IMG/VR virus record: IMGVR_UViG_3300015214_000031
Location: 10,694-74,693 of that record
Reading direction: 5' to 3' (one strand)
DNA length: 64,000 bases
From: a virus
Lineage: Duplodnaviria; Caudoviricetes
Below are positions 6,819-62,472 of the stretch, one piece after another. Below the pieces are notes generated by a model that saw nothing but the letters and a program-made list of their open reading frames with translations, was not told the origin of the DNA and did no database searches. Position 1 is the first letter of the stretch, and each line of letters opens with the position of its first letter. The position numbers and the translations under genes are program-made.

Positions 6819-7370
6819 GAAATTGAAAAAATATTTTCTGGTGCTTCTGGAAATGTTCAAGATACAAGTGGGGTAAGTCAGGGAATTCTTGCTCATTGGT
6901 TAACTTGGATGAACGAAACTGAAGGAAAAACGGATAGAATCATTGTAGTAACTGCTAACAGTCTCACTGGAATACCTCCTGAGTTTATTGGAAGATTCGA
7001 TACTGTTTTCTTTGTTGGATTTCCCAATAACCAAGAAAAAAAGCAGATCATTGAAATTATGAATAAACGATATGGGAGTACACTACCCACAAACAATGAA
7101 TTTGTAAATAGCTTGGATAGATGGACCGGAAGAGAGATTGAAAGATTGGCTAGGGAATCTCTTTTTTATAAAATAGAGGATGCAATCAAATATATTCCTC
7201 TTGTAAAAAATACAAAAGAAAAAGAAATTAGAGAAATGGAGAAATTTGCTACTCAAGTAAGACATGCAAGTAAACCAGATGAAAAAAAGGAGGGAAAAAG
7301 GTCAATATTAACTGATTCAGATAAAGAGAAATTCAAGCAAAAACTCAAGATTAAAAAGAAGGAGGATTAA
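6819..7370 (+). CDS. AAA+ ATPase, exon 2
   Basis: Begins EIEK (second half of Walker B). VVTANSLTGIPPEFIGRFD (sensor I/arginine finger); WTGREIE. Confidence 0.85.
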   Translation, partial: EIEKIFSGASGNVQDTSGVSQGILAHWLTWMNETEGKTDRIIVVTANSLTGIPPEFIGRFDTVFFVGFPNNQEKKQIIEIMNKRYGSTLPTNNEFVNSLDRWTGREIERLARESLFYKIEDAIKYIPLVKNTKEKEIREMEKFATQVRHASKPDEKKEGKRSILTDSDKEKFKQKLKIKKKED

Positions 7371-10804: not shown

Positions 10805-10890
10805 GGGGGCATGGTGGAACTGGCATACACAACGGTTTTAAGCACCGTTGCCTTAGTGGATTGAGGGATCGATTCCCTCTGCCCCCACCA
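10805..10890 (+). tRNA. trnL: tRNA-Leu (anticodon UAA), class II with variable arm, CCA encoded
   Basis: Acceptor GGGGGCA/TGCCCCC + A73 + CCA. D arm GTGGAACTGGCATACAC. Anticodon stem ACGGT/ACCGT with loop TTTAAGC. T stem GAGGG/CCCTC with loop ATCGATT. Confidence 0.9.
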
Positions 10891-27427: not shown

Positions 27428-28003
27428 GTGGATGATTATTTTAAAAAGTATATACTAAACAATAATGATGTTTATAATCTTTTTGTTGAATTGGAAGGGA
27501 AAAAAAATGAAGTCTATAATGATTCAGGTGGTTTTCCAACTATAGGTATAGGACACAAATTAACTCAAAGTGAATTGACTTCAGGAAAAATATACATAGG
27601 AAATGACTCAGTAGAATATGACATTAGACTTTCTGATAATGAAATTGATAGACTATTCTGGCAAGATTTAGAAATTCATTATTATAATATAAAACAATAT
27701 GTTTTTGTGAAACTGAATCCAAATGAGATGATTGCTTTAATCTCATTTTGCTATAATATTGGAATTAATGCTTTTAAAAATAGCACATTACTAAAACTCC
27801 TCAACCAATCTCACTATAATGAAGTTCCAGACCAAATGAGAAGATGGAAATATTGTAAAGGTGAAATCATTCAAGGATTAATCAATAGAAGAGAAAAAGA
27901 AATAGCTATTTGGAATAAAGAGTATAAAAATTATAAACTTGATAAACTTCTAAAAATTAAATCTCTCATTGAGGAATTAATCAATGAAGAAGCATCATTG
28001 TAA
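27428..28003 (+). CDS. GH24 phage lysozyme (endolysin)
   Basis: LEG....VYNDSGGFPTIGIGH catalytic E-D-T motif; ALISFCYNIG; GLINRREKE. Confidence 0.9.
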   Translation: MDDYFKKYILNNNDVYNLFVELEGKKNEVYNDSGGFPTIGIGHKLTQSELTSGKIYIGNDSVEYDIRLSDNEIDRLFWQDLEIHYYNIKQYVFVKLNPNEMIALISFCYNIGINAFKNSTLLKLLNQSHYNEVPDQMRRWKYCKGEIIQGLINRREKEIAIWNKEYKNYKLDKLLKIKSLIEELINEEASL

Positions 28004-28350: not shown

Positions 28351-28384
28351 AGGGGTACTCTTTTTTGGAGTACCCCTTTTTTTA
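28351..28384. terminator. Rho-independent terminator at the convergence of the two arms
   Basis: AGGGGTACTC/GAGTACCCCT perfect 10-bp stem followed by a T7 run on the + strand. Confidence 0.85.
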
Positions 28385-28747
28385 TGGTGTGATATTTAAA
28401 TTGTTTCCTAGTAAAAGTTTTACAAATGATGTTGCTACTGCCGCTGTGATTGCCCCACCAATTATCTGCAACAAGACAGCCGCAAGTAAAAAAATTCCAG
28501 CCCATTTCATTATCTTATTTTCAATAGTTCTAATTCTTATTTCATGATCGTACAATGTTTTATTTAAATTATCAATCACATCTTTTCTAAACTCTTTTTT
28601 AAAATCTACAAAACATTCTTTTAACTCTTCAAGCAAAACATTCTTTACTTCCGCTACTTGAGATTTAAATTCTAACTGAATCATTTCCACAGTTATATCA
28701 TGGATAAAACATTTCTTTTCATCTTTATCTTTATGTTCATTTGCCAC
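28382..28747 (-). CDS. Coiled-coil protein with C-terminal TM segment (lysis-associated?)
   Basis: HEIRIRTIENKIMKWAGIFLLAAVLLQIIGG. Confidence 0.5.
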   Translation of the reverse strand: MANEHKDKDEKKCFIHDITVEMIQLEFKSQVAEVKNVLLEELKECFVDFKKEFRKDVIDNLNKTLYDHEIRIRTIENKIMKWAGIFLLAAVLLQIIGGAITAAVATSFVKLLLGNNLNITP

Positions 28748-28784
28748 CAGTTATCTCCCCCATCAAAATCAGAAAATTTAACTT

Positions 28785-28976
28785 TTATTTTTCAGGAAGG
28801 TCGGGAAGAGAAAGTAACTTTTCAGCATCTCTAAGCATTTCATCTGGAAGTATAGGCTTATATTCTGGATTATTCCAATTCTCTGCCATATCCTTAACTA
28901 GAAAGTATAATCCAGAAACTAAACTAAGAGATAATCTAACCATATCTACATCATTTTCATTCACTCCCATTTTCAA
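28785..28976 (-). CDS. Hypothetical protein
   Basis: 63-aa ORF overlapping the lipoprotein gene end. Confidence 0.5.
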   Translation of the reverse strand: MKMGVNENDVDMVRLSLSLVSGLYFLVKDMAENWNNPEYKPILPDEMLRDAEKLLSLPDLPEK

Positions 28977-29391
28977 CTCCTCCTAAGCCATATTGAATAA
29001 AAAGATCGGTAGCATCATAAATCAATTTATTTACCTGTTCTTCAGTAAGTTTAAATTTAATGGGCATAACACCTGTATTTACCCATTCATTAACCAATTT
29101 ATTATAGTCAACCAACTTGTATTTCAAATCATTCAAAACAGGATTAACCTTAGTAATTACAAATTCTTTTTCATCAGGTGTTCCATAATCTGTATAAAAC
29201 TTTGCTTTATTATAAAGTCTAATATAAGCCTTAGTTAAATCTTTACCAACGTAACCTGCTTTGTCTGCTTGAGACAGATTGGGATCATTCATATAACCAG
29301 GATTCATTGAAGCACAACTTGTAAAAAAGCACAGCACAGTTAAGATAAACAAAAGTGATACAGTTCCTTTTAATTGCGCCTTTGTCACCAT
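28957..29391 (-). CDS. Lipoprotein (possible spanin-type lysis component)
   Basis: Signal peptide with lipobox-like FTSC; SD AGGAGG. Confidence 0.55.
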   Translation of the reverse strand: MVTKAQLKGTVSLLFILTVLCFFTSCASMNPGYMNDPNLSQADKAGYVGKDLTKAYIRLYNKAKFYTDYGTPDEKEFVITKVNPVLNDLKYKLVDYNKLVNEWVNTGVMPIKFKLTEEQVNKLIYDATDLFIQYGLGGVENGSE

Positions 29392-29451
29392 ACTTTCCTC
29401 CTGTTTAAACTAGCTACAAGCATCCCACACGACTTGGTTTTCTAATTGAAC

Positions 29452-29673
29452 TTATGATTTGTCGTTTTTATTTTCCAAACTTTTTCTTGTAGCATCCACT
29501 TTTCTTCCTAAACCAACAAGACCCATACCGGCAGAAATAAGAAGCCATCCAAATTCCTGCTGCCCCTGATACATTTTAAGACAACCCATAACTACCAACA
29601 TACATGCCGCAAGCCAAGTAACAAATCCCTGCATTCCAACTTTGTCTCTAATAAAGTTAATAATACTACCCAT
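29452..29673 (-). CDS. Holin-like protein (2 TM, basic C-terminus)
   Basis: Two TM helices then GRKVDATRKS... Confidence 0.55.
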   Translation of the reverse strand: MGSIINFIRDKVGMQGFVTWLAACMLVVMGCLKMYQGQQEFGWLLISAGMGLVGLGRKVDATRKSLENKNDKS

Positions 29674-30499
29674 AAATTTCCTCCAAGTATTTTTTCAAAT
29701 CATCAGGATTAAAATTATTAATATCTACTTTTTTAATTTCCATTGGAATATATCTTTCAAAATCCCAAACTTTCTTCAACCCAATACATCTATCATAACC
29801 TAAAATAGAACCTGCAAGATAAAATGGTCCAGAATCAATACCAATAAAAGAACTACATTCTGTAATTTTTTCTATTATTCTTTCAAGATTTGGATCTTCA
29901 AATCGTAAAGATGCACCAAACTTTAAAAATTTCATCCCATTTTCATCATACTGATTAAAAGATGTATTATGAATTTCAAATGGATCTAAACCAAAATCTT
30001 CAATTGTATTCCATATATTTTCAGCAAGTTCTAAATCAGGACTTTTGTTTTTCTGATTGGTATTACCGAAAAAATGAACTCCCACTTCATTAGAAGCATA
30101 ATCTATTGAATCATATCTTTGAAATGGTTTCCATTCAAAATCTTTCAATCCAACAACCAATTCATTACAAAGATAGGGTTTGCTTCTATTCATATACTTA
30201 CCAAATGGCTCTACATACCTTATTCTAAAAATAAAAGTATAAAGATCAATTAAAGGTCTAAAATTTTGAGGAAGACTAAATATTTTCTCAGGCCAAATTG
30301 CATTTAATTTTCTATGAGCATTCGTTCCAATACAAAATTTCCAATGGGGGTATGTCTCCATCAATTTTTGAAATATAGGTAGAAAATTAATTAAATCCCC
30401 CAATCCATGATTAAAAATCAACATAACATTTCCAGGTTCACCCTCATAGGAATCAAGATAATCACATATTTTCTTATCAGGAAATTCAACAACGTACAT
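29666..30499 (-). CDS. GT9-like (heptosyltransferase-type, GT-B) glycosyltransferase
   Basis: HGLGDLINFLP; FIGIDSGPFYLA. Confidence 0.7.
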   Translation of the reverse strand: MYVVEFPDKKICDYLDSYEGEPGNVMLIFNHGLGDLINFLPIFQKLMETYPHWKFCIGTNAHRKLNAIWPEKIFSLPQNFRPLIDLYTFIFRIRYVEPFGKYMNRSKPYLCNELVVGLKDFEWKPFQRYDSIDYASNEVGVHFFGNTNQKNKSPDLELAENIWNTIEDFGLDPFEIHNTSFNQYDENGMKFLKFGASLRFEDPNLERIIEKITECSSFIGIDSGPFYLAGSILGYDRCIGLKKVWDFERYIPMEIKKVDINNFNPDDLKKYLEEIYG

Positions 30500-30502
30500 T
30501 TT

Positions 30503-31222
30503 TTATTCCTTATCAGCAGAAAGAAAAGATTTAATAACACTTTTAGCTTTTTTCAATGAATGACCAGCAATGCAAAATCTATTATCAACACAAACTTGAT
30601 CTTCAGCCACTATACAAAAATCAGCTTTACTTAGAATATCGTCAACAAGAAAAACATTATTGTAAATAACTACTGGATTATTTTTAGTAAGATTCACAAT
30701 CTCAGCACAGATTATTTTATTCCCAAATAAGCAGCATTTATAATTTAAAGAATAAATATAATCGACAAGGGAGGCAGAACCTTTTACATCATTTGATTCT
30801 GTTATTTGAAATGCCACAAAAGGATGTAAAGCATAATAACGAACAGGAGCACTAACATTGGCAATAGGTCTGTTTTGTAAGACCAAGTTAGGAAATCCCA
30901 CAACTTGCTCGTTACATTCTTCAGTATTATAGACCTCTCCAACATCAAAGACATAATCATATTTTTTTAATGTTTCTCTATTCAAACTAGAAAAAAGAAT
31001 AGAGTTTCCAGAGACTAAATGTTTGTCATAGACAATATACAGTGATACAATCTTTACATTTTTATAAACTTTTTGTAATGGTTCAATTAATGGGTTAAAT
31101 GTTTCCAAGCTAACATCATTTGGAAATAGAAACAGAACAGAAGAACCACTTTTAGCTTCCATCAAATGATGATAAATTTTTTTGTTTTTAAATTGATTAA
31201 TTCTTATCATTTCCAACCTCAA
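30503..31222 (-). CDS. Degenerate GT9-like protein
   Basis: Weak GT-B-like pattern (LLVDDILSKADFCIVAED); lacks the GLGD and DSG motifs. Confidence 0.35.
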   Translation of the reverse strand: MRLEMIRINQFKNKKIYHHLMEAKSGSSVLFLFPNDVSLETFNPLIEPLQKVYKNVKIVSLYIVYDKHLVSGNSILFSSLNRETLKKYDYVFDVGEVYNTEECNEQVVGFPNLVLQNRPIANVSAPVRYYALHPFVAFQITESNDVKGSASLVDYIYSLNYKCCLFGNKIICAEIVNLTKNNPVVIYNNVFLVDDILSKADFCIVAEDQVCVDNRFCIAGHSLKKAKSVIKSFLSADKE

Positions 31223-32786
31223 TTATTTTATTTAGAATTTCACCAGAATTGATTTCAACACATACTACACCATGAGGAAGGACTTTATCAAATTTTCGCA
31301 ACCCCTCCAATCCAATGCATTTTTCAGGTCCAAGAATAGACATTGCAAGGTACAAAGGACCGGAATCGACACCAACAAACAAAGAGCAAGTTGCTATTTC
31401 TTCACACATTTTCTTTAAATTTGGAAATTCAAATCGTAATGTTTCTTCTTTAGAAATAAAAGAGGGTTGTTCTATAACATTTAAGTGTTCAATAGGAATC
31501 ATTTGTATCTCAAATGGAATAAAGCCATTCATTTTCAATGAATCCCATAATTTTTCTGCTATGTCCATCGGAACATTTTTTTCTTTTCCTTTTGAATACC
31601 CAAAAAAGTGCACTCCTACTTTTTTTTCTACTTTATTACCTTTTACATTTAATTTGTAAGGTTTCCATTCAAAACTATCCAAACCAATTTCCATCTTATT
31701 ACAAAGATGGGGTTTTGAAATAGTATCAGCATCTTCAATGCCTAATTTTTTGTAATATTCAATTGTAGTTAGGTTTCTTGGGGCATCTGGATACTGAATA
31801 TTACACATTATATCAAATTCATCACCATACTTTCCGTATGGTGCATCTATAATCCTAACTTTTGGATGTAGATACTTAAAATTTCTATCGGGGGTACATC
31901 CAATATACAAATCCCATTTTTCAAATCGCTTAACCAGTTCTTCAAATATAGGAAGAAACAATATAAAATCACCCAATCCATGATTAAACAAGATACAACA
32001 TTTACCTGATTCATACTTTGTTAAAAAATCACATACCTTCTCTTCATAACAACTATGAACTATTCTCATCATTTTATTTTTCTCCCATTCAAATTTATCA
32101 ACTTTTCCTTTAAAATAATCTCTTCCACCAAACAGTTTTCGATGATCTGAGGGTTTACAGTAAGTACCCACAACTCCAATATGCATACTTCTTGGAATAA
32201 CAGGACTCATAACTTTTAAATTGTACTTCTTAATAACAGACCGTATTGACCAATCCCAACCAATTCCACCTATTTTCATTTCTTTAGAAATCAAATCATT
32301 AAACCAATAAGGCTTTAACCATTTTTCCCATGATTCTTTTGTAAAAGCCATTCCAATAGCTACAAAATTATCCCATTCTAACACTGAATATATTTTAGAA
32401 AAATCAATGTTGAGGTAGTGATAAAAGCTACAATGAATGTGCCTGACAGGATCATGATTAAGTAAAAAGAAATCAGCAAATCTAAGAGCGTCATTTGACA
32501 AAATAGAATCGTCTTCCAAATAAACATTAAATTGGCTGTCATCTTTGAAAAGTCTATCCAAAACTTCATAAGGATTTCTCCTTACACCAAGTTTTCTAGG
32601 ATTAACCATTATCTCGGTATCTATAAAATCAATGGATTCACACAAGTAAACATTTTTATCATTCCCAGGTTCCAATGCACAATATAGCTTATCATATCCA
32701 TAAATATCATTTTTTGATAAGCTATCTATTACTTTTTCAAGATAGTGGGGTCTATTATTGGCAGTTATTGAGATTGTCTTTTTCAT
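31197..32786 (-). CDS. Two-domain glycosyltransferase: N-terminal GT-A fold + C-terminal GT9-like domain
   Basis: NRPHYL, YLEDD, WDW, RSMHIG in the N-half; HGLGDFILFLP and FVGVDSGPLYLA in the C-half. Confidence 0.7.
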   Translation of the reverse strand: MKKTISITANNRPHYLEKVIDSLSKNDIYGYDKLYCALEPGNDKNVYLCESIDFIDTEIMVNPRKLGVRRNPYEVLDRLFKDDSQFNVYLEDDSILSNDALRFADFFLLNHDPVRHIHCSFYHYLNIDFSKIYSVLEWDNFVAIGMAFTKESWEKWLKPYWFNDLISKEMKIGGIGWDWSIRSVIKKYNLKVMSPVIPRSMHIGVVGTYCKPSDHRKLFGGRDYFKGKVDKFEWEKNKMMRIVHSCYEEKVCDFLTKYESGKCCILFNHGLGDFILFLPIFEELVKRFEKWDLYIGCTPDRNFKYLHPKVRIIDAPYGKYGDEFDIMCNIQYPDAPRNLTTIEYYKKLGIEDADTISKPHLCNKMEIGLDSFEWKPYKLNVKGNKVEKKVGVHFFGYSKGKEKNVPMDIAEKLWDSLKMNGFIPFEIQMIPIEHLNVIEQPSFISKEETLRFEFPNLKKMCEEIATCSLFVGVDSGPLYLAMSILGPEKCIGLEGLRKFDKVLPHGVVCVEINSGEILNKIIEVGNDKN

Positions 32787-33349
32787 TTTAAAGTAGCAAC
32801 CAATACATCATCTTTAAAAATTACATTCTCATCAGAACCAGTTTCATAAAAAATGTTATACTCTGGATTAATAGCTAAAAGTAATCTTCTTACTTCTTTT
32901 TCTGTAATATAATCCATATTAATTTTACCAAAATCTCTTTTATCATCTATCAATATTGTATGTGTTTTGATTGAATGATTTTTAATTGTTAACAACTCAC
33001 TTATCAACGAAGTAAAGCTTCTTCCTTTTGCTGTTTTATATTCACCAATGGAAGGATCGTTTCCACTTCCAGAATAATGTGCATCCAACCAAAATGTAAT
33101 AGGTTCTTTTATATATTTTATCATTTCCCAAAGAACAACTTCTGATTCTCCATGATAAAGAAAAATATTTTTAACATTATGGAATCTACTGCATACCTTT
33201 CTATAATTATCAATATCAAGTTCTACACTAGAAATATTTTTAAATCCTGCTTTTAAAGCATAATTCACACCGTCACCTGCAAAAGTTCCAGTTTCTACAA
33301 ACCAATTATTCATATATTTTTTAAATAGCATTTCTGAATTAACAGGCAT
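32783..33349 (-). CDS. Class I SAM-dependent methyltransferase-like protein
   Basis: FVETGTFAGDG, SVEL, GES, FWLDAH, ILIDD. Confidence 0.65.
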   Translation of the reverse strand: MPVNSEMLFKKYMNNWFVETGTFAGDGVNYALKAGFKNISSVELDIDNYRKVCSRFHNVKNIFLYHGESEVVLWEMIKYIKEPITFWLDAHYSGSGNDPSIGEYKTAKGRSFTSLISELLTIKNHSIKTHTILIDDKRDFGKINMDYITEKEVRRLLLAINPEYNIFYETGSDENVIFKDDVLVATLK

Positions 33350-33358
33350 TATTATCTC

Positions 33359-34048
33359 CTAGAAAAGATGTTTGATCTCTGTACTTATTAATTTATCTTT
33401 TATGTATAAACCATATTTAAACTTAAAGTTGTTTCTCCTTTCAGCATATTGATTGGTAAACATATGCTCACCAAAATAAGGATTGTTTTCAAATTTACCT
33501 GATTTTGCTTCATGACATTTTTTTATATGATTAAACATATTTTCTTTCGTTAAAGTATTGAACACTTTGAACATTCTATTTATATCCGGTTCCAAATCAA
33601 ACTCATAAATCACTTTTCCAAATTCAGAAATAAAATTTGTTTTTAATCTTTCATATTTAATTGGAACAATGTCCATATGAAAATATTTATTATAGTGCTT
33701 CTTTAAATAACCAATATATAAATCAATGAAATTTTTTATTTCCTTTCCATATTTGAATTTCATTCTTTTCATTTCACTTGAGTAATATGAATATATAACA
33801 TCAACTGGATCTCTATAAAGATAAATTATTGTTTTTTTTCCTTTTACAGTTAAATCAGAATAAACATCATGATCCCCTTCCCACATGGGAATATCACTTA
33901 TTTTATCATGAAAATAATTATGAAAAGGATATAAATAACTATTGAATCTTGGTTGTCTAAAATAAGCTTCCATTAACGCATTTAACCAATGATTTCCACT
34001 TCTAGGAAATCCAATAACTAATGGTAATTCACTTCTACTTTTTCTCAT
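33359..34048 (-). CDS. PAPS-dependent sulfotransferase-like protein
   Basis: 5'-PSB loop GFPRSGNHW; 3'-PB motif YRDPVDVIYS; IKYERL. Confidence 0.75.
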   Translation of the reverse strand: MRKSRSELPLVIGFPRSGNHWLNALMEAYFRQPRFNSYLYPFHNYFHDKISDIPMWEGDHDVYSDLTVKGKKTIIYLYRDPVDVIYSYYSSEMKRMKFKYGKEIKNFIDLYIGYLKKHYNKYFHMDIVPIKYERLKTNFISEFGKVIYEFDLEPDINRMFKVFNTLTKENMFNHIKKCHEAKSGKFENNPYFGEHMFTNQYAERRNNFKFKYGLYIKDKLISTEIKHLF

Positions 34049-34872
34049 TATACCTTTCCATCAAGATGTTCCATTATAGCTTCATATACCCTTTCAGAAA
34101 AATCTCTACAATATTCCTGGGAAAGTACATAATTTTCCTCAGCATACTTTAATTTTCTATAATAATCATTTTCAGTAAGACAATTACAAAGTCCAATAAT
34201 ATGCTTTACATCCTCTACAATGAACATCCCTTTTATATTAAAAAATTTATCTATATTCGGAGCACCCACATAAATAGGTATCGTTTTAGTTTGAAAGCAG
34301 TCCATTAACTTTTCTGTAAAATAATTATTGTAACATGAATTTTCTATTGCAATATGAAACATGGAATCAAACATCACAATCTTTTCATGTGGTTCTGGTC
34401 CCAACTCAGGGTTATCAAAAATATTTGCCATTGGATTATGTGAGCTGTTCCAAAATTCAATGGGTACTTCTGTTATTTCTTTTTGTCTATTCCAAAGTTT
34501 TTGCCTCATATAATGATTTGCAGTCATATTTTTAGAAGTACAAAACGTACTCACTTTAAATTTTTTATTTTCAACTTTTGAAATATCAGATTCTCTTATC
34601 CAAGTCATACCACACAAAAACATTTTTCCATTATCTACTACTTTTAGAATATTTTCATCCCATGTAAGAATCAAATCAAAATAAGGAGCAAGCTCTACTA
34701 CTTTCTTATTGCTCATTCTAGTATTTTCAGGTTCGTTAGAAATATTAAGTACATTAACAACATAGGGATTTTTAGGTCTATCAGCATGAACATTATAAAT
34801 ATCAACCTGAACAGGAAATTGAAGAATATCTTGTCTTAACCAATGGGCAAAATAAATATTTGCAGTAATCAT
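34048..34872 (-). CDS. GT10-like (alpha-1,3-fucosyltransferase-type) glycosyltransferase
   Basis: FHIAIENS...NYFTEKLMDCF...IPIYVGAPNI. Confidence 0.75.
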   Translation of the reverse strand: MITANIYFAHWLRQDILQFPVQVDIYNVHADRPKNPYVVNVLNISNEPENTRMSNKKVVELAPYFDLILTWDENILKVVDNGKMFLCGMTWIRESDISKVENKKFKVSTFCTSKNMTANHYMRQKLWNRQKEITEVPIEFWNSSHNPMANIFDNPELGPEPHEKIVMFDSMFHIAIENSCYNNYFTEKLMDCFQTKTIPIYVGAPNIDKFFNIKGMFIVEDVKHIIGLCNCLTENDYYRKLKYAEENYVLSQEYCRDFSERVYEAIMEHLDGKV

Positions 34873-35795
34873 CTTAGTTTCCCCATAAAAGAATCATAAT
34901 AATCATTGATCCAAATGAGTTCCATAGGATTTAAAACATACTCTAAAACTTTATAAATATAATTCCAATTATTTATCTCATATCCCGGCCTCATACAATG
35001 AGCTTCAACATATTTGGATAGATCTCTATCATCCCAATATGATCTATCCAAACGATCTATAGGAAGATATTCAGGAATCCCTTTGCACTTAGGATAAAAT
35101 GCAGGATTATTGAATATTTCCCTATCAATCATTTGACAATCACTATAATTGGAGTACCTTATTATTTTATTATAAAACAAAACTTCATCATAACCCCACT
35201 GAACTTCTTTTCTTGAATTTCTTCTTAATCCAAATTTAAGTAATCTATTGATTGCTAAATAAATATTTTCTTTATCCCATATTCCCATTACCTTTCGCCA
35301 TGTACTAATATTCATTCCAATATAGCAAACGGGATATCTTTTATGATTATATCCATTAGCATAAAAAAGATGAATAGGCTTTTCCATATCCTGCTGAAAA
35401 AACCAATCTCTTTTCATTGGGATCATATCAACATCACTTGTAAGACAATAAGTTTTATCATCTGAAATAATACAAGGAGAGCAAAACCTTGAAACTTGTG
35501 CAACAACTCCTAAGTTATAGCCATCAAAAGCTGGATTACTATGAATTCTATCTGAATTCAAAAAAACCACATCAGCACCAGCTTCCAATGTTTTCTTTAA
35601 AATAAATGAATTAACCTTATTTGAATACCAACCACTATCACCAACTATAAAAACAATAGGATGATAATTAAATTTAGACCAAACATATGAAGCTATAGGA
35701 GAGAAAAAAGAATAAAAAAGGTTATTGTCAGTAGAAAAAATAACTTTTCTATCAAAAATCATGCCTCTGGTATTTTCGATATAATCATATACCAT
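34869..35795 (-). CDS. Putative GT-A glycosyltransferase
   Basis: DxD motif TSDVDMIP; WGYDE; located inside the glycan cluster. Confidence 0.45.
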   Translation of the reverse strand: MVYDYIENTRGMIFDRKVIFSTDNNLFYSFFSPIASYVWSKFNYHPIVFIVGDSGWYSNKVNSFILKKTLEAGADVVFLNSDRIHSNPAFDGYNLGVVAQVSRFCSPCIISDDKTYCLTSDVDMIPMKRDWFFQQDMEKPIHLFYANGYNHKRYPVCYIGMNISTWRKVMGIWDKENIYLAINRLLKFGLRRNSRKEVQWGYDEVLFYNKIIRYSNYSDCQMIDREIFNNPAFYPKCKGIPEYLPIDRLDRSYWDDRDLSKYVEAHCMRPGYEINNWNYIYKVLEYVLNPMELIWINDYYDSFMGKLR

Positions 35796-36395
35796 TTATT
35801 TACACCTTTTCCAATTTTCCCATACCCAAGAATATTGATATGTAAGTTCATGAGTTTGTGAAAGTCTTTCTTGAATCTTATTTCTTCTTTCGTATGCCCT
35901 ATTAACAAATCTATGAAATTGGACTTGAATATTTTTAAACATCCTCTGAAGATCATTATCCAAAATAGCTTCAAGTATTTCAAATTCACATCCCTCTACG
36001 TTTATTTTAATTAGATCTACCGTTACAATATTTAGACTAACTACAACATCTACAATGGATTTAATTTCAATTTGTTCAGCTTTACTTCCTGTCAAATAAA
36101 TACTGGACGAATCGTCATTTATAAAAATCAAATCCTGTCTGTTATTACATCCAAGACCAAAGTTGAAAATATTAATATTATCATAATCACATAATTCATT
36201 TGTTACATTACAAAAATACTTTTTTACAGGCTCAAAGCCAAATATTCTGCATCCATATTCTTTATGTATTTTTTTGGTAAATTCCCCATTGTAAACTCCA
36301 AGATCCATAACTACTGAATTTGCATTTAAATCATAATCATACCTCAGTTTTTCTGCTTTATCCTGAAACCATTTATTGAATTCCGGCTTTTCCAT
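35796..36395 (-). CDS. FkbM-family methyltransferase
   Basis: VMDLGVYNGEF, FEPV, LIKINVEGCEFEIL, QVQFH. Confidence 0.85.
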   Translation of the reverse strand: MEKPEFNKWFQDKAEKLRYDYDLNANSVVMDLGVYNGEFTKKIHKEYGCRIFGFEPVKKYFCNVTNELCDYDNINIFNFGLGCNNRQDLIFINDDSSSIYLTGSKAEQIEIKSIVDVVVSLNIVTVDLIKINVEGCEFEILEAILDNDLQRMFKNIQVQFHRFVNRAYERRNKIQERLSQTHELTYQYSWVWENWKRCK

Positions 36396-36397
36396 TT

Positions 36398-37150
36398 TTA
36401 TACCCTAAAAATAAATTCACACGGTTGTTGCGGTGATGCCCCTTTGTAACTATTTAATATTTTATAGTGATTTCCAGGCATAAAATTAACATCTTGAAAA
36501 CCTGTCTTTCCATTAATGACAGGACTATATGTTATAGGATTTCCTAAAATGCTTGCCCATAAAGAAAATGTAGAATTTGCCCTAAAAAGAATATCAGCAT
36601 TCATCAATGTAAAAAAATCAGGAAGGAAATCAAACTTGCAATCCTGTGCTATATACGGATTATCATCCGATACCCAAATAACATTATCAATATCAAATCC
36701 ATAATATTCTATTGCTCTTATATAAGATCTTTGAGTAATGCAGCAGTAAATATCAATGTACTTGGATACATAGTCTCCTCTTCTAATATGAGCAGCAACA
36801 TAAAAAGGTTTTAATTTAGGAAACATATCTATCCATTCATCTTTAAACTGTAACCACTTTTTTATCTTGGACATAGAAAGAATATCAAAACAATCTTGAA
36901 ATTGAAAGTATCCAAACAGATCTATATTCACTTCCCCCCAAGGAACAATATCTAACTCAGTTTTTCTTTTTAAAAATTTAATAGGGGGGTGGTCTATATT
37001 TTTAAAAATTTTTCTACCTATCCAATCAGCAGGGATTTCCAAAACAGCATCATGAGTCTCAGCATAAGCTCTAGCAAAGCAATATTGAAAAAGTTGATTA
37101 GCCCACCTTCCAAACTTTCCTAAGCAACTGCATTGTATTATTCTGCTCAT
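36398..37150 (-). CDS. GT11-like (alpha-1,2-fucosyltransferase-type) glycosyltransferase
   Basis: GRWANQLFQY, HIRRGDY, SDD, NSTFSLWA. Confidence 0.85.
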   Translation of the reverse strand: MSRIIQCSCLGKFGRWANQLFQYCFARAYAETHDAVLEIPADWIGRKIFKNIDHPPIKFLKRKTELDIVPWGEVNIDLFGYFQFQDCFDILSMSKIKKWLQFKDEWIDMFPKLKPFYVAAHIRRGDYVSKYIDIYCCITQRSYIRAIEYYGFDIDNVIWVSDDNPYIAQDCKFDFLPDFFTLMNADILFRANSTFSLWASILGNPITYSPVINGKTGFQDVNFMPGNHYKILNSYKGASPQQPCEFIFRV

Positions 37151-37154
37151 AGTT

Positions 37155-37733
37155 TCACATCCTAGCTATCCAAATGTTTCCTTCTCTAATTTCAAAACCA
37201 TTGGGAAAAAATCCATTTTTATCTAATTCATCTACTGCTGCTTTTACATCATTCCCATTACTATCATTTAAATAATAATCATGTCCTGCCAATACCATTC
37301 CTTTTTTTACTTTAGATGCCCAAGAAACTATATCCCTATTTACATTAAAAGCATCATGGTCAGCATCAATAAAAACAAAATCCAGTGAATTATCATTGAA
37401 CATTTTTGCTGCCAAATGTGATTCTCTTTTTATATCTACTATATAGTCCCTAACTCCATTCCTGTTTAAAATAAAATTATAAATCTCATAAATATATGGT
37501 TGCTCTGGAAGAGTTGAAGATTTCCAATCCTCCCAAACATCTACAGCCCATACCCTAAAATCTTTTTTCCCTGCTTTAATCATCTCTCTTACTAAATATG
37601 AAATAGAAAATCCCTTAAAAACCCCAACCTCTACAGCAGTAAAAATATTTGGATCATATGCCACTTCTTTATAAAATTTCTCAAATGTAAACCAATTATT
37701 AGTATAAAGATGTGATTTTATATTAAATTTCAT
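37155..37733 (-). CDS. Class I SAM methyltransferase (Methyltransf_24-like)
   Basis: VEVGVFKG, AVDVW, FVFIDADH, AGHDY. Confidence 0.8.
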   Translation of the reverse strand: MKFNIKSHLYTNNWFTFEKFYKEVAYDPNIFTAVEVGVFKGFSISYLVREMIKAGKKDFRVWAVDVWEDWKSSTLPEQPYIYEIYNFILNRNGVRDYIVDIKRESHLAAKMFNDNSLDFVFIDADHDAFNVNRDIVSWASKVKKGMVLAGHDYYLNDSNGNDVKAAVDELDKNGFFPNGFEIREGNIWIARM

Positions 37734-38800
37734 TTAATCTCCATCAACTCCAATGTCTGTCTCAACTCATTAATATCAATGTTCATATTTTTTTCTCCAT
37801 CAGAGTACCAGTAATCGCCTTCTTCAATACAATCCCCCTTGCCTATCAAATAATAAAGATCCAACTCACAAGAATCACCAAGCAACCAATAACAAAGTCC
37901 TAAATAAGTGGGGGAGAACAACTCAAGAATTTTTGTTCCTTTTTTACAAAAAACAATATTGGAAAGTCCAGCACCATGAGGAGCAATAACAACTTCAGCC
38001 TCAGAAAAGTATTTAATCTGATCTTTAACTGTCATCTCTTCACATTTAAGAATTTCAAACTTATAATCCTTTAAACAGGAAATTACTTCCTCTTCGTTTT
38101 CAATTGATCTACTTCCTGATCTTGAAACGTAAAGTCTTCTTCCTTTATCATTTGACAAATAATCTTTAAATAATTTTTTAAGGTAAAAAGATGAAATTTT
38201 ATTTGGATTGACACCATACCCAATAGGAGAAATAACATGAAGATCATGAATCATTAATTCATGATATCGTGTCATTGGAAGAATAGAAGAAGAATGAACA
38301 TTCAAAAGATCAAATATTTCTCGTATAAATCTTTTGTTATAATCATTACAAACAATTCTCTGAAAAGAGATTCCCAAATCAATCGCCAAAGCAAGTTTAG
38401 GAAGAGATGTATGAAGAAAATGAAAATAATTCCAACCTCCCCATTTCTGACAAATATACAAACAGGGTTCTTCTACAGGATAATAACTATCTCTAAAACC
38501 AAGGGATTCATTCCAAAAAGGAGAAATATCAGTAAGAATTATGTTATTTTCAGTTCTTATACAGGCACCATCCACACCATTTCTATCAAAGCAAGAAATA
38601 TTAATATCTTGTAATCTTGCAGTAAATACTTTATTAGATTCTTGTAATCTCTTTGATTCATAAATATTTTTATACTTATTATTTATTGATTTGGGAATTT
38701 CAAGAGAATAATCATAACCAGTAAAAATTACTTTGTAATCTTGAACTTGTTTTCTTGATGAAAGAATGTATTCATAGGTTTCCATCTGTTTCATATCCAC
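37730..38800 (-). CDS. GT61/DUF563-like glycosyltransferase
   Basis: NYFHFL...LPKL, LYVSRS..RSIENEEE, IAPHGAGLSNIVF. Confidence 0.8.
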   Translation of the reverse strand: MDMKQMETYEYILSSRKQVQDYKVIFTGYDYSLEIPKSINNKYKNIYESKRLQESNKVFTARLQDINISCFDRNGVDGACIRTENNIILTDISPFWNESLGFRDSYYPVEEPCLYICQKWGGWNYFHFLHTSLPKLALAIDLGISFQRIVCNDYNKRFIREIFDLLNVHSSSILPMTRYHELMIHDLHVISPIGYGVNPNKISSFYLKKLFKDYLSNDKGRRLYVSRSGSRSIENEEEVISCLKDYKFEILKCEEMTVKDQIKYFSEAEVVIAPHGAGLSNIVFCKKGTKILELFSPTYLGLCYWLLGDSCELDLYYLIGKGDCIEEGDYWYSDGEKNMNIDINELRQTLELMEIK

Positions 38801-39441
38801 CCCTTTTTAGCCAATTCACCCAATGCAAGAGGCATAGCTTTTTGATTTAAATGAATATTATCCATGTAATAGCTTAAATCCGTTCCCATGTAACTATCAA
38901 CAAGATCATAAAAAAGAGTAAAAAATTTAAACCCAAACTCTTTACTCTTTTGTTCTAGGAAAACATTAAAAGTTAATGTTATTTGATTTCTTTCCAACAT
39001 ATCACCAGTAATAGGACAATCTCTTGAAGAACACGATTGGGGAAGTTTCGTACTTGGAATTGGACCCCAAACACCAAAACTAATATTTGAAAAATTATAC
39101 ATTAAATCAAGTAGACCATCTACATATCTTTCTACACATTTATATACATTATGAGCTTGAGAATAACCTCTTCTTACATTTTTACCAATATGATAACGAC
39201 AATCAATTTCACCAAAAGAAAATAAAACTTTATCTTCAGGCAAAATTAAAGGGAGAATATATAAAATCTTCTCCCTTGCCTTATATGTTGTATTTTCTTT
39301 CAAAAGATTGAAAGCAATTGGTGCTCCAATTCTATAAACACTAAATTGATTATTGATCCCACAATAAGGAGGGTATTCTGGTACTATTTCATTTTTGCCT
39401 ATAAAAAAAGAAACATGAGAATCACCTATTACATGAATCAT
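38791..39441 (-). CDS. SGNH/GDSL-fold acyl-esterase/transferase-like protein
   Basis: IGDSH (block I), GEIDCR, DNIH (DxxH). Confidence 0.65.
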   Translation of the reverse strand: MIHVIGDSHVSFFIGKNEIVPEYPPYCGINNQFSVYRIGAPIAFNLLKENTTYKAREKILYILPLILPEDKVLFSFGEIDCRYHIGKNVRRGYSQAHNVYKCVERYVDGLLDLMYNFSNISFGVWGPIPSTKLPQSCSSRDCPITGDMLERNQITLTFNVFLEQKSKEFGFKFFTLFYDLVDSYMGTDLSYYMDNIHLNQKAMPLALGELAKKGWI

Positions 39442-39452
39442 CTCTTTTTACC

Positions 39453-40073
39453 TTACAAATCAATTAAACTTCCTTGGCTTCTATTATGATTAAAAGGACT
39501 AGGTTCTACAAAACAGAAATTAAAACAGTTACAAAGAAACAAATCAATGGGAAGACCATTATAATTATGATCCTGTAACCTTGAAATATTTTCTTTACCT
39601 ATAAAATAAGCCAATGTTCCCAAACATCTTCTTGGACTAGTATTATCTTTAGCAAAAAAAGCATTTAATTTATTTTCTTCATCAAAAAGTTCTTTATTGA
39701 ATATTTTATAATTTGGTTCTCTAGAATGAACAGAAACAATTTCATATGAAGAAAGAAGTGAAGAAGCCGATATACAAATATCCAACCAATCAGGACGATT
39801 AGGTTCCGCATCATCCTCTAAAACTAGAATATTTTTTTTCTTTGCAAGGTTCAATGCGTTTTTATGTCCTTCAAGACAACGGTGCTGCCCAATGTGTTGA
39901 TGCATATGCACCACTAAACCTTTATAAATTGGATTCGGTTGCCATCTAGGAGGAAGATCAAAATCAGGAGTATAATATATTTTATAAGGAACATCCTCAA
40001 GATAAGGAAGAATAATAGGTTTCCTATGCTTATTTGCTATAACTACAATATCAAAATCAAGCTTTTTCTTCAT
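39453..40073 (-). CDS. GT25-like glycosyltransferase
   Basis: CLEGHK, LVLEDDA, GTLAYFI, PIDLFL. Confidence 0.6.
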   Translation of the reverse strand: MKKKLDFDIVVIANKHRKPIILPYLEDVPYKIYYTPDFDLPPRWQPNPIYKGLVVHMHQHIGQHRCLEGHKNALNLAKKKNILVLEDDAEPNRPDWLDICISASSLLSSYEIVSVHSREPNYKIFNKELFDEENKLNAFFAKDNTSPRRCLGTLAYFIGKENISRLQDHNYNGLPIDLFLCNCFNFCFVEPSPFNHNRSQGSLIDL

Positions 40074-40177
40074 TCAAATATACCTCCTCTTTTGTTATAT
40101 TTTTAATTAAATAAGATCTTAACTTTCTACATCCAAGAATAAATTCACAAAATAAACAAGTTTCTTTAATCCCACTC

Positions 40178-41038
40178 TCATTGTTCATATTTAAGCACAC
40201 TCTTTACTACCTCCATCGGTTGAATCATTAGCATACATTTAGGATATTGAATATTTCCCCCAATTAAATTAGTACAATCTTTTCTTTGTTTTTTCCAACA
40301 ACCATTTAACTTGCAACACTCAATCATTCCTATTGTATGAAGATATTGGTGAATTGGATAATGCTCATACCTTGGATCTTCCCTACCACCCCCAATCACA
40401 ACACAAGGTTTTTTAAATGCTGCCATTACATGCATTAAAAAAGAAACAGGAGAAATAGCACCATCTGCATGATAACACAAAGACAAAAAATCCCTTAAAT
40501 TCTCTGTCTTTCCTACTAAATTTTTAATACTTGTAAATTTTGGATGTATATGTCTGTCACTTCCAACCTGAATTAACTGAATCCCCCTTTTATTTAATTC
40601 TTTAAATATTTCTTCCCAATAAAAAACAGGATATGCTTTAAGCGGTATATCAATTTTAATCCCACAATTCACAATCCAGAATCTACCAGATATATCATAC
40701 TTTTGCAAGCATTTTTCCCTATCTTTTTCCTCTTCAGTAAGAAAAATTTCAGGATAAATATCATGCTGTAAAAAATCAGTATTTAAATTATCATTTAATA
40801 TATTAAACAAAACTTGAGAATAATGACTAATACCATCTCTATAAGAAATAATATTGTCATGTGTTATTCTAATTACACTGTTACTTTGAACTGAATTATT
40901 AATATTTGGATTATTTTCCAAAATTTCAGGGTAAAAACTTTTAACATTAAACTTAAAATCAGAAAAATATTTTATAACAGATGTAAGTACAACCAAATCA
41001 CCAGGAGCAAATAAAAATTTAATAACAAAATCATCCAT
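40178..41038 (-). CDS. GT9-like glycosyltransferase
   Basis: APGDLVVLT, ILENNPNI, KAYP..YW, NLVGKT, HVMAAFKKPCVVIGGG. Confidence 0.75.
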   Translation of the reverse strand: MDDFVIKFLFAPGDLVVLTSVIKYFSDFKFNVKSFYPEILENNPNINNSVQSNSVIRITHDNIISYRDGISHYSQVLFNILNDNLNTDFLQHDIYPEIFLTEEEKDREKCLQKYDISGRFWIVNCGIKIDIPLKAYPVFYWEEIFKELNKRGIQLIQVGSDRHIHPKFTSIKNLVGKTENLRDFLSLCYHADGAISPVSFLMHVMAAFKKPCVVIGGGREDPRYEHYPIHQYLHTIGMIECCKLNGCWKKQRKDCTNLIGGNIQYPKCMLMIQPMEVVKSVLKYEQ

Positions 41039-41048
41039 AATTTATTTC

Positions 41049-41549
41049 CTATACTGCCGCCATCAATCCGTTGTTAATCAAAAGATTTCTAATAGCATCC
41101 ACAGCCGTCTTTAATTCAGTCACGTCAGCAGCAGGACTTGCAATCAATGACTGTTGATACAATTTAACTATAGAACCATTTTCTGTTTTAAAATGAGGAC
41201 AACAATTTCCTGCCGCTTGATCGTTTGCATATTGCACATAAGAATCAGCACTAGGAGTAGCAGGAGCAGCAACATTGGATTGATAATTAGCTTTCACATT
41301 GGTATGAATAGTTTCCCATGCAGCAGCACCACGAACCTTCAAAACATGATTAGTCAAATCCCTCCACAGACAACCCTCTGTCAATGTAATATCAGGATAA
41401 TCATGAAAAACATCACCCGGTTCAACCGTATTTGCCCAACATCTAAAGCCATCATCAATCATATCAAAATTAGCATTCAATGGAGTATCAAAACGAAGAG
41501 TTTGGTACGCGGGTTTTTCAATATTAAAATAAGTTGTATAGTCAGCCAT
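41049..41549 (-). CDS. Short tail fibre/baseplate-associated protein
   Basis: N-terminal YTTYFNIEKP......LNANFDMID motif typical of fibre anchor segments. Confidence 0.5.
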   Translation of the reverse strand: MADYTTYFNIEKPAYQTLRFDTPLNANFDMIDDGFRCWANTVEPGDVFHDYPDITLTEGCLWRDLTNHVLKVRGAAAWETIHTNVKANYQSNVAAPATPSADSYVQYANDQAAGNCCPHFKTENGSIVKLYQQSLIASPAADVTELKTAVDAIRNLLINNGLMAAV

Positions 41550-41560
41550 TTTTATTCTCC

Positions 41561-42076
41561 TTATACATCTTGACCAGTAATAGTATAAGTTACATTAATC
41601 ACATCGTCATCTACCACAACCCTAGCAACAGCAACATTTGAAACACACCACAAAATTCCAGTTTGACCTCCTTTAGTTGCAATGGAAACCAAAAAAGCAC
41701 CATAAACTGAACCACTACTATTTATAGTAAATTCGGCAGGATTTGCAGAATTAGTAATTATTTTAGATGATGCTCCTGCTTCTTGCCATTGAACCCTTGT
41801 CGCCTCATCATAGTCAGTAAACTCTGTAAATCCATTATTAATATTAGCTGAAGTCCAAGCTTTATTTACCGCTTCATTCGATCCTTTTAATCCTATATAC
41901 CAATTTAGATTTACAGAATCACCTGAAAAATACACCCCAAGCATATCAGTAATTGCTTCATCCATAATATCATTAAATACAAAATCACACCATTTAAGCC
42001 TTCCTTTTGAATCATAACATTTAAATTGAAACAAACCTTTTAAATTCTTTAAAGAATTAATACTTTTAAAATTCAT
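41561..42076 (-). CDS. Virion structural/fibre adaptor protein, paralogue of 61927-62472
   Basis: Shared YDEATR, ITNSAN.A.FTIN, YGA.LV, NVTYT. Confidence 0.6.
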   Translation of the reverse strand: MNFKSINSLKNLKGLFQFKCYDSKGRLKWCDFVFNDIMDEAITDMLGVYFSGDSVNLNWYIGLKGSNEAVNKAWTSANINNGFTEFTDYDEATRVQWQEAGASSKIITNSANPAEFTINSSGSVYGAFLVSIATKGGQTGILWCVSNVAVARVVVDDDVINVTYTITGQDV

Positions 42077-61926: not shown

Positions 61927-62472
61927 TTAAGCACCGTCATCAGCAGCAGAAACAGTATAAGTAACATTCAATGTATCACCAGATTCTACATTCTTACTGG
62001 AAGAAAACAGTGCCGAACAAAGGAGAACACCACCACCAGCAGTATCTCCTTTTGTATTCACATTTACCAATGCGGCACCGTAAATGGTTTTGGTTGCATT
62101 AATTGTAAATGCAGCTTTATTTGCCGAATTAGTAATAGATTGACCAGAACTTGCTGCTTCATTATATTCAGGTCTTGTAGCCTCATCATATGCAGTTGAT
62201 TCTGTATAACCAGGGACAGCATAAGTATGAGTTGCCAAAGGGGTAGTATTTGATTCAAAAATAGCAACATACCAAGTTGCAGACGCATCATTATGAAGAG
62301 TAGAATCAAGAATCTTATCCAAACCCTGATTTGTTACAAGATTCTCTGCCAGTTCAACCCATTTCAAATTTCCTTCTTTGTCAAAGCATTCTACAATAAA
62401 CTTTCCACCAACTACAAAACTGGATTTTACTTTAAATAATTTCTTTAAAATATTTTCAATGATTTTTTGCAT
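61927..62472 (-). CDS. Virion structural/fibre adaptor protein, paralogue of 41561-42076
   Basis: G.F...C.D..G.LKW...NLVT..G, YDEATR, ITNSAN.A.FTIN, GDTLNVTYT. Confidence 0.6.
   Translation of the reverse strand: MQKIIENILKKLFKVKSSFVVGGKFIVECFDKEGNLKWVELAENLVTNQGLDKILDSTLHNDASATWYVAIFESNTTPLATHTYAVPGYTESTAYDEATRPEYNEAASSGQSITNSANKAAFTINATKTIYGAALVNVNTKGDTAGGGVLLCSALFSSSKNVESGDTLNVTYTVSAADDGA

Follow-up and report, generated by a model that had tools for sequence, protein, structure and literature searches.

The 64,000-nucleotide window analysed here, bases 10694-74693 of the single linear 74,693-bp IMG/VR record IMGVR_UViG_3300015214_000031 (Caudoviricetes), carries exactly 14 minus-strand open reading frames (ORFs) from position 41038 down to 29666 that can fairly safely be regarded as a soluble, multi-enzyme set for glycan assembly and decoration. 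By our assignment this cassette contains eight to nine glycosyltransferase (GT) domains, two to three S-adenosylmethionine (SAM) methyltransferases, a sulfotransferase of the 3'-phosphoadenosine-5'-phosphosulfate (PAPS) type and an SGNH-like enzyme, and gene order places it in a late gene run of at least 35 kb. What appears to be new is that the order of the cassette is conserved in a related phage in which the decorating enzymes have been exchanged, and that two GT9-type genes seem to bracket replaceable cargo. The acceptor of the glycan may be a virion protein, a view that we hold tentatively and with somewhat less than even confidence.

CheckV estimates the record to be 69% complete. GT61 and GT9 proteins identical to those of this phage are also known from a 101,224-bp contig, which makes about 100 kb the probable length of the full genome. 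The GC content is about 30% across the whole window and no different in the cassette. Among cultured phages none is close, the identity of the polymerase to any of them being at most 23%, and megablast matched the cassette to none of 50,697 phage records.

Layout and content of the cassette

The initial annotation described 14 co-directional, tightly coupled ORFs between tail-fibre genes and a holin-like gene, and the ORF layout bears this out. Neighbouring genes overlap by 1-26 nucleotides (nt) or are separated by gaps of 0-11 nt, with a 104-nt gap at 40074-40177 as the sole exception, and the last cassette ORF shares 8 nt with the holin-like gene. Inside the run, sites resembling promoters or terminators are not more frequent than in shuffled sequence. 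No cassette ORF has a convincing membrane segment: the maximum Kyte-Doolittle mean over 19 residues stays below 2, and the highest value falls in the N-terminal Rossmann strand of the GT9 enzyme. Hydropathy thereby confirms the predicted lack of membrane segments. The lack of a flippase-type gene holds as well, as the ORFs of at least 60 amino acids (aa) in the 74.7-kb record have at most two hydrophobic 19-residue segments each and no polytopic membrane protein was found.

In gene order the cassette reads as follows; ORFs are cited below by their lower coordinate, and cut-offs are the curated ones of Pfam.

40178..41038, minus strand: GT9 glycosyltransferase, 286 aa, first gene of the island, family A7 (Pfam PF01075, E 3.5e-7, 30.2 bits against a cut-off of 22)
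39453..40073, minus strand: GT25-like GT-A glycosyltransferase, 206 aa (ESM Atlas only)
38791..39441, minus strand: SGNH/GDSL-like esterase or acyltransferase, 216 aa, variable decoration slot (PF00657, E 0.081, below cut-off)
37730..38800, minus strand: GT61 glycosyltransferase, 356 aa (Pfam PF04577, E 1.2e-27, 97.2 bits against a cut-off of 27)
37155..37733, minus strand: class I SAM methyltransferase, Methyltransf_24, 192 aa, variable slot (Pfam, E 1.1e-15)
36398..37150, minus strand: GT11-like (alpha-1,2-fucosyltransferase-like) glycosyltransferase, 250 aa (phrog_2644 'glycosyltransferase', E 7e-13)
35796..36395, minus strand: FkbM-family SAM methyltransferase, 199 aa (Pfam PF05050, E 1.1e-9; phrog_8156)
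34869..35795, minus strand: glycosyltransferase of GT-A fold, GT8-like, 308 aa (ESM Atlas only)
34048..34872, minus strand: GT10 fucosyltransferase-like glycosyltransferase, 274 aa (Pfam PF00852, E 1.4e-8, 35 bits against a cut-off of 23.9)
33359..34048, minus strand: PAPS-type sulfotransferase, 229 aa (Sulfotransfer_1, PF00685, E 1.2e-8, 35.1 bits against a cut-off of 22; Sulfotransfer_3, E 2.8e-6)
32783..33349, minus strand: 188-aa protein, possibly a third Rossmann-type methyltransferase (motif-I-like FVETGTFxG only)
31197..32786, minus strand: two-domain glycosyltransferase, 529 aa, with an N-terminal MGAT2/GnT-I-like GT-A domain and a C-terminal GT9-like domain of family A3 (both below cut-off)
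30503..31222, minus strand: degenerate copy of the GT9-like family A3, 239 aa (HGLGD catalytic motif lost)
29666..30499, minus strand: separate GT9-like member of family A3, 277 aa, which closes the island (paralogous to the C-terminal half of 31197)

Six of the ORFs (40178, 37730, 37155, 35796, 34048 and 33359) score above the Pfam cut-off, and an NCBIfam search gained nothing beyond GT9. Counted by domain, the eight or nine glycosyltransferases are the GT9, two GT9-like, the GT25-like, GT61, GT11-like, GT8-like and GT10 domains and the MGAT2-like GT-A domain. The families had been named almost correctly in the initial annotation, with two labels shifted: the GT25 is 39453, and the 'DxD protein' is the GT8-like 34869. 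Two of its three methyltransferases are recognised by Pfam, and the third, 32783, has the motif-I-like match as its evidence. Its further suggestions that the glycan is branched and possibly acylated were guesses and find no support.

Related phages and a replaceable island

Relatives were retrieved from IMG/VR with alignment-based scans, whereas scans with single proteins, the J-like tail protein or the GT61, found none. The GT61 alignment led to a contig (L001/L086/L104) that together with a second contig from the same sample (L091) represents one related phage. Its genes run from the end of the tape measure through a tail assembly protein, two J-like proteins and fibre-like ORFs into the cassette, which consists of GT9, GT25-like, GT61, GT11-like, FkbM, GT8-like, GT10, a 32783-like ORF, GT-A and A3. 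A survey of synteny had been suggested as a check, and both the place and the order of the cassette are indeed kept, at amino-acid identities of 34-58% between the window and this phage. The closest homologues of the cassette proteins sit on contigs of 16.7, 26.3, 12.7 and 101 kb.

The two versions differ in several slots. In the related phage the SGNH gene is replaced by an FkbM-like ORF, the Methyltransf_24 gene by a Methyltransf_12 gene and a second FkbM gene, and the ORF at the position of the sulfotransferase has only an FPRSGNH P-loop-like motif in common with ours; A3 is present as a single copy. A 4.3-kb fragment (L005) retains an SGNH orthologue (47% identity) and shows a third version of the slot between the GT61 and GT11-like genes, with a different 1.6-kb insert in place of the Methyltransf_24 gene. 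Across these sequences the sugar-adding backbone appears conserved and the decorating enzymes variable.

More distant members of the lineage were found with an alignment of family A3, which led to 12 IMG/VR loci (L091-L102), the longest contig reaching 108 kb. In all 12 the late array ends with the A3 gene, which converges on a primase/helicase module, and several of them carry a GT9 of the 40178 type 1-8 kb upstream of A3. In the distant relatives, no glycan enzymes are recognised between the two GT9-type genes; of 65 ORFs, only three match a GT family (GT9), and Laminin_G_3, DUF4915 and tail Collar are matched by one ORF each. Their cargo comprises tandem paralogues of about 340 aa (phrog_6368/phrog_2448, function unknown), a family of about 280 aa beside A3 and tail-fibre-like ORFs. 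Arrays of two to four of the ~340-aa paralogues lie upstream of A3 in L092, L094, L096, L097 and L100-L103, with no Pfam or PDB match, and the ~280-aa family gave one weak match to DUF4915; the window contains neither of these two families. Because two conserved GT9-type genes bracket different cargo in the relatives, we view the cassette as one cargo type of a swappable island, which by its neighbours appears to sit at the distal-tail end of the virion module.

Evidence for the individual enzymes

Besides its Pfam match, the GT61 enzyme gave sequence matches in the PDB to POMGNT2 and EOGT at about 1e-3, and it has 11 metagenomic homologues with 38-47% identity. The GT10 enzyme 34048 has an orthologue of 53% identity in L001. 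For the GT11-like 36398, the match to Pfam GT11 (PF01531) lies below the threshold (E 0.018; 14.7 bits, cut-off 23.9). Cyanophage genes with a GT11 annotation are matched by tblastn at 25-29% identity and E 3e-7, and the orthologues of 36398 in L001 and L005 are 53-58% identical.

Two further transferases are suggested by the ESM Atlas. The putative GT25-like 39453 has no Pfam or PHROG match. Its Atlas feature score is 0.96 to a viral cluster of 372 members, 52% of them with PF01755, and the template-modelling (TM) score of its structure to a GT25 cluster is 0.75, to be taken as a lead only; orthologues in L001 and L007 are 57-64% identical. Similarly, 34869 has no Pfam match, and its structure resembles a lipopolysaccharide (LPS) 3-alpha-galactosyltransferase (GT8; TM 0.63) and giant-virus proteins carrying FkbM (TM 0.65). 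Both proteins fall in virus-dominated Atlas clusters, some of them giant-virus and FkbM-fused, and the L001 orthologue of 34869 is 44% identical.

The two-domain protein 31197 matches Pfam MGAT2 at 4.5e-5 (23.2 bits, cut-off 27) and GT9 at 0.058. Homologues of its N-terminal half bear PF03071/PF05060, its C-terminal half (residues 239-529) is 50% identical to stand-alone proteins of about 295 aa, and the L001/L091 phage encodes the two halves by separate genes. At the end of the island, 29666 aligns to residues 248-514 of 31197 with 36% identity (6e-52).

The decorating enzymes are of several kinds. The sulfotransferase 33359 carries a 5'-phosphosulfate-binding loop, FPRSGNHW, at residues 14-21. 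The FkbM methyltransferase 35796 has an orthologue in L001. The candidate SGNH enzyme 38791 reaches 13.5 bits for Lipase_GDSL, against a cut-off of 23.6, and begins with MIHVIGDSH, in which the GDS motif of block I occupies residues 6-8. No family was matched by 32783 in Pfam, PHROG or NCBIfam searches. Its FVETGTFxG aligns to motif I of FkbM at hhalign E 0.002 and a probability of 14%, and a single-sequence AlphaFold2 (AF2) model, poor at a predicted local distance difference test (pLDDT) value of 47, has alternating beta and alpha elements; its L001 orthologue is 53% identical.

The two GT9-type families

Enzymes of family GT9 are recognised by an N-terminal G-D catalytic motif (Asp13 in WaaC) and by a nucleotide-sugar motif in the C-lobe, D-S/T-G...H-x-A-A. 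In family A7, to which 40178 belongs, G13-D14 is invariant, and the conserved H203, A206 and A207 align to 'DSGLMHVAAAL' of WaaF. Five C-terminal cysteines (C241, C242, C247, C255 and C268) are conserved too, and the C-terminal Cys cluster is invariant. The family profile matches WaaF (1psw) at 2.5e-9, the GT9 structure 3tov at 5e-4 and TibC at 0.02. A GT9 of this type occurs on at least 106 IMG/VR contigs of many sizes, of which only L104 has the same GT and methyltransferase cargo. At 14 of 80 loci it lies 4-10 kb from homologues of the Ycf46-like AAA ATPase of the window (5552-6511 / 6816-7370); these loci (L140, L143, L147, L165-L168, L170, L172, L176, L180-L182 and others) are on unrelated, often much larger phage contigs.

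Family A3, which unites 29666, the C-terminal half of 31197 and metagenomic proteins of about 295 aa, has invariant HGLGD and G-x-D-S-G-P motifs that are reminiscent of GT9. Weak matches to PF01075 were obtained for 5 of 17 members (best E 0.023). The hhalign comparison with A7 has a probability of 2.8%, although it is the sugar-nucleotide motif that is aligned. Searching the PDB with profiles of families A3, A5 and A6 returned nothing useful. The family of 30503 (A10) is recovered as related to A3 (hhalign 95%, E 2.4e-8) with the HGLGD columns substituted; it has only 8 relatives among 1.84 billion representatives, and a single-sequence AF2 model of 30503 was unusable (pLDDT 35).

Scanning 185,579 prokaryote species with the A3 pattern gave one hit, on an 18-kb phage contig of this lineage, and as this sole hit lies on a phage contig and in no cellular genome, the A3 transferase looks phage-specific. 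The contig (L103, JAHWGK010000044.1; 31% GC) was binned as 'Thermoplasmata archaeon' and carries A5, A6, A3, a primase and helicases in the order of the lineage. Thermoplasmata as host, the label of the metagenome-assembled genome, was considered and rejected: the contig belongs to a phage of this lineage, a phage with a lysozyme-type endolysin and a lipoprotein, and the binning is probably wrong.

Genomic context and candidate acceptors

The plus strand of the window holds a replication module with a family-A DNA polymerase, a UvsX-like recombinase, a DnaB-like helicase, a second helicase and a primase. The minus strand holds a siphovirus virion module with a head-tail adaptor, a Neck1-type tail-completion protein, an Ig-domain protein, a tape measure of 1898 aa and a tail assembly protein, followed by two J-like tip proteins (854 and 1153 aa), a galactose-binding-like tail protein and small fibre-like ORFs. 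The features around the cassette, and the tRNA, are:

10805-10890, plus strand: tRNA-Leu (anticodon TAA), the sole tRNA in the window
27428-28003, plus strand: lysozyme-type endolysin at the end of the replication module
28351-28377: convergent terminator with an 11-bp stem and a T-run, the only strong one, where the two gene arrays meet
28382-28747, minus strand: 121-aa protein with a single C-terminal membrane anchor (hydropathy and sequence)
28957-29391, minus strand: 144-aa lipoprotein with the lipobox-like signal ...LCFFTSC (hydropathy and sequence)
29452-29673, minus strand: holin-like protein of 73 aa with one strong hydrophobic segment (hydropathy)
41049..42076, minus strand: two small fibre-like virion ORFs of 171 aa (phrog_8123) and 166 aa, directly upstream of the cassette, candidate neighbours or acceptors

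The signal ...LCFFTSC is presumably a Bacteroidota-style lipobox, and no canonical spanin pair was recognised in the lysis region 28382-29673.

Searches of the record for an integrase, for a ThyA-like gene (PF00303) and for sugar-nucleotide or PAPS genes (Epimerase, NTP_transferase, SIS_2 and APS-kinase families) found none. Such absences are provisional because the record is incomplete. With no donor-synthesis genes seen, the enzymes must, as far as is visible, draw on the sugar-nucleotide, SAM and PAPS pools of the host.

These observations bear on the idea that the glycan is built on hydroxymethylated bases of the phage DNA. Phage transferases are described as placing one to few sugars on hydroxymethylcytosine or hydroxymethyluracil (Pyle 2024, as cited in PMC12619734). 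Here, however, the genes belong to a late structural run far from the replication module, and since they are late and no ThyA-like hydroxymethylase gene is in the record, DNA hypermodification is highly improbable. Moreover, we know of no DNA role for the sulfotransferase, GT61, GT10 and GT11 families.

Of more interest as acceptors are the virion proteins themselves. The small fibre-like ORFs are kept beside the GT9 gene in L104-L109. In the L001-type phage (L104) this gene follows them directly, and it lies just downstream of fibre-like ORFs in five further members of the lineage (L105-L109), in four further members within about 3-4 kb. Fibre-like ORFs also occur between the two GT9-type genes in relatives. 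The upstream ORF 41561-42076 has a paralogue at 61927-62472 (both minus strand; phrog_8123, with a weak match to the 'head protein' phrog_240), so that one copy stands just before the cassette and the other in the head module; a phrog_8123-type copy is likewise located upstream of the GT9 in L104 and L106-L109. A separate observation concerns 41049-41549 (minus strand). Compared with L001:6754-7152, its first ~80 residues (MADYTTYFNIEKP...LNANFDMID) are 60% identical and the remainder differs, which suggests an N-terminal module that anchors a fibre and distal parts that have been swapped.

The second candidate is the product of 62484-63998 (minus strand), an ORF open at the contig end. It contains about 19 tandem units of 20 residues, [LIV]SDGxx[LIVF]SDSxxxxxxxLxxx, in each of which an S-D motif occurs twice; the autocorrelation has its maxima at 20 and 40. 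Its composition is 16% Ser and 10% Asp, with Ser and Thr together at 24%; a lectin-like stretch precedes the repeats and TFTLK repeats stand at the end. It belongs to phrog_12240 (function unknown) and has no match in cultured phages. An assignment of 62484-63515 as major capsid protein was rejected in favour of a 20-residue-repeat protein. We would speculate that it forms a fibre at the head or neck and could be an acceptor of the glycan.

Weighing the acceptor

In the scenario that we favour, a soluble, membrane-independent assembly line would be transcribed with the late virion genes and would add sugars one by one on the cytoplasmic side, using activated donors made by the host, likely GDP-fucose, UDP-sugars and ADP-heptose or similar. 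The glycan would then be methylated, sulfated and perhaps acylated or deacylated. The likeliest acceptor would be a co-produced virion surface protein, either the distal tail fibre proteins beside the island or the repeat protein with its Ser/Asp units in the head module, and the particle would thereby gain a glycan coat that varies, which would in effect make this a 'serotype' island of the virus. A virion acceptor is favoured because the genes are co-oriented and coupled with virion and lysis genes; because the GT9 gene follows or lies near small fibre-like ORFs, and fibre-like genes are found inside the island in relatives; because A3 looks phage-specific and no integrase was found; and because there are precedents in mycobacteriophages and giant viruses.

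Several points weigh against a virion acceptor. Late transcription is read from gene order only, and in an incomplete record missing genes prove little. The virion proteins of the window lack any Ser/Thr-rich tract or tail; their richest 20-residue segment, in the tape measure, has 10 Ser or Thr residues. When four cassette proteins were compared by tblastn with the 50,697 cultured phage records, no mycobacteriophage was matched and three of the four had no match at all. The mix of families is equally typical of LPS or lipooligosaccharide (LOS) core and Lewis-antigen synthesis, and the A7 profile is nearer to WaaF, an LPS heptosyltransferase, than to TibC, which transfers heptose to protein. 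Finally, as distant relatives hold non-GT cargo of unknown function at this place, the island may not always concern glycans. The initial annotation thus holds for a set that builds and decorates a glycan in the late virion run; its choice of virion proteins as acceptor is conjectural.

Instead, the cassette could remodel the host envelope. The transferases would act on a lipid A-core of LOS type or on another lipid-linked glycan that the host flips and exports, and such a late change of the surface could, for example, block adsorption of progeny or competitors to infected cells and debris. This is a possible explanation and on balance an unlikely one. GT9 heptosyltransferase-like, GT25, GT8, GT10 and GT11 enzymes are builders of LPS and LOS cores and of Lewis-type outer chains, and homologues of GT11 in cyanophages are usually discussed as surface modifiers. 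WaaF is the best match of the GT9 family among solved structures, and an LPS 3-alpha-galactosyltransferase cluster is that of 34869. The missing membrane segments and flippase are compatible with remodelling, because the enzymes need no membrane segment and the host could flip the product, and the lipobox-like lipoprotein and the lysozyme-type endolysin fit a Gram-negative host. On the other hand, the genes lie where the late run of virion and lysis genes ends and not with early or lysogeny genes, no integrase was found, and converting the surface just before lysis would be of limited value. The absence of A3 from cellular genomes in the pattern scan, with its single phage hit, speaks in the same direction, and a heptose-containing LPS is not to be assumed for the host.

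It is improbable that the product is some other cytoplasmic glycoconjugate, such as a non-structural glycoprotein of host or phage, a small-molecule glycoside, or a storage or decoy oligosaccharide freed at lysis. All enzymes are soluble and no acceptor has been identified, which would suit such a product, and the non-GT cargo of the distant relatives implies that the function of the island may not be tied to the virion. Yet the position and conservation beside fibre genes favour a link to virion or adsorption, and no precedent for such a cytoplasmic product in phages is known to us.

The virion reading also has a stronger form, in which the lineage carries a 'viral serotype locus': two conserved GT9-type anchors around a hypervariable island, whose cargo would be traded among relatives in the manner of O-antigen loci and would here, in the cytoplasm, place a methylated and sulfated glycan of fucose/heptose type directly on virion fibre proteins. 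In this full form it seems doubtful.

Relation to known systems

By function, the cassette is nearest to virion glycosylation in mycobacteriophages and to capsid and fibril glycosylation in chloroviruses and mimiviruses; by family content, it is nearest to LPS/LOS core synthesis. The mycobacteriophages Che8, Corndog and Myrna glycosylate capsid and tail-tube subunits with their own transferases (Freeman 2023, as summarised in PMC12619734 and PMC12363180). As described there, these siphoviruses too encode soluble transferases among or after the virion genes, and the glycan coat on virion subunits shields the particle; they are actinobacteriophages with one to four GT genes and carry the glycans on the C-termini of capsid and tail-tube subunits. 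In contrast, the present system has 14 genes, other families (GT9, GT61, GT10, GT11-like, GT25-like and GT8-like), a sulfotransferase and an SGNH-like protein. Phages of the Corndog type are also said to have an O-methyltransferase beside their transferases.

Chloroviruses and mimiviruses make methylated glycans for capsids or fibrils with soluble enzymes of their own (PMC9614988 and PMC7826918). The accounts of PBCV-1 A064R and A111/114R and of the fibril clusters of Megavirinae (PMC9614988, PMC7826918 and PMC10117803) share with our phage a cytoplasmic, virus-encoded, host-independent multi-enzyme synthesis with sugar methylation, multidomain GT or GT-methyltransferase proteins and clade-specific gene sets. 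Besides, GT/FkbM and GT25 clusters of Nucleocytoviricota are among the structural neighbours of 34869 and 39453 in the Atlas. The giant viruses differ, in the same accounts, by eukaryotic hosts, genomes of 300 kb to 1.2 Mb and often sugar-nucleotide pathways of their own, whereas here a bacterial siphovirus of about 100 kb shows no donor-synthesis genes in its 74.7-kb record.

The LPS/LOS and Lewis sets (WaaC/WaaF of GT9, LgtB/Lic2A of GT25, WaaI/J of GT8, and the Helicobacter enzymes FutA of GT10 and FutC of GT11) present the same mix of families in soluble or peripheral enzymes that act sequentially on the cytoplasmic side. The phage set differs in that it is borne in a late virion run, has GT61, MGAT2-like, sulfotransferase and methyltransferase genes in addition, and includes no Kdo or lipid A genes.

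Bacterial autotransporter heptosyltransferases (BAHT) share the GT-B core of heptosyltransferase type with the phage GT9 and act on cytoplasmic protein without a lipid carrier. TibC and AAH possess an N-terminal beta-barrel of about 97 residues and a four-cysteine iron finger, Cys339, 342, 358 and 370 (PMC4358343). In a HMMER alignment three conserved cysteines of the phage GT9 fall on Cys342, 358 and 370 of TibC, the match being weak (E 0.02). The phage protein has 286 aa as against 406, and no N-terminal beta-barrel: there is no room for one of the TibC type because the phage proteins are shorter and start directly at the catalytic G-D, at residues 13-14. Many ordinary LPS enzymes of GT9 carry a C-terminal Cys cluster, too. 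Given the weak match, the missing barrel and such clusters in LPS enzymes, the cysteines were rejected as a discriminating sign of protein heptosylation.

Seroconversion modules of the gtrABC/oac kind are similar as phage genes near the tail-fibre end that alter a glycan. The gtrABC modules are morons of temperate phages with a flippase and polytopic transferases working in the periplasm, and the cassette is not of this type, with neither a polytopic membrane protein nor an integrase in 74.7 kb. A search of the full-text literature found no paper on a phage with this combination of enzymes.

Significance

It is established that giant viruses and, as of 2023, a few mycobacteriophages make their own glycan coats, which in the mycobacteriophages blunt antibody recognition. 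If an environmental siphovirus of Gram-negative type indeed builds a far more elaborate methylated and sulfated glycan with 14 enzymes of its own, glycosylated particles would be more widespread and varied among phages than is known, with a bearing on adsorption, evasion of defence, particle stability and the immunology of phage therapy. Glycobiology would gain a compact set of soluble transferases that are independent of lipid carriers. Should the stronger serotype-locus form be true, the phage would provide the first case of a bacterial virus coated with a sulfated glycan, together with a branch of the LPS heptosyltransferase family that is directed at proteins, in parallel to the heptosyltransferases of autotransporters. 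If host LPS is the target, a late-expressed surface-remodelling cassette with no integrase in the sequenced part would also be unusual. The two conserved GT9-type genes on either side of replaceable cargo provide a practical means of tracing such islands in other phages.

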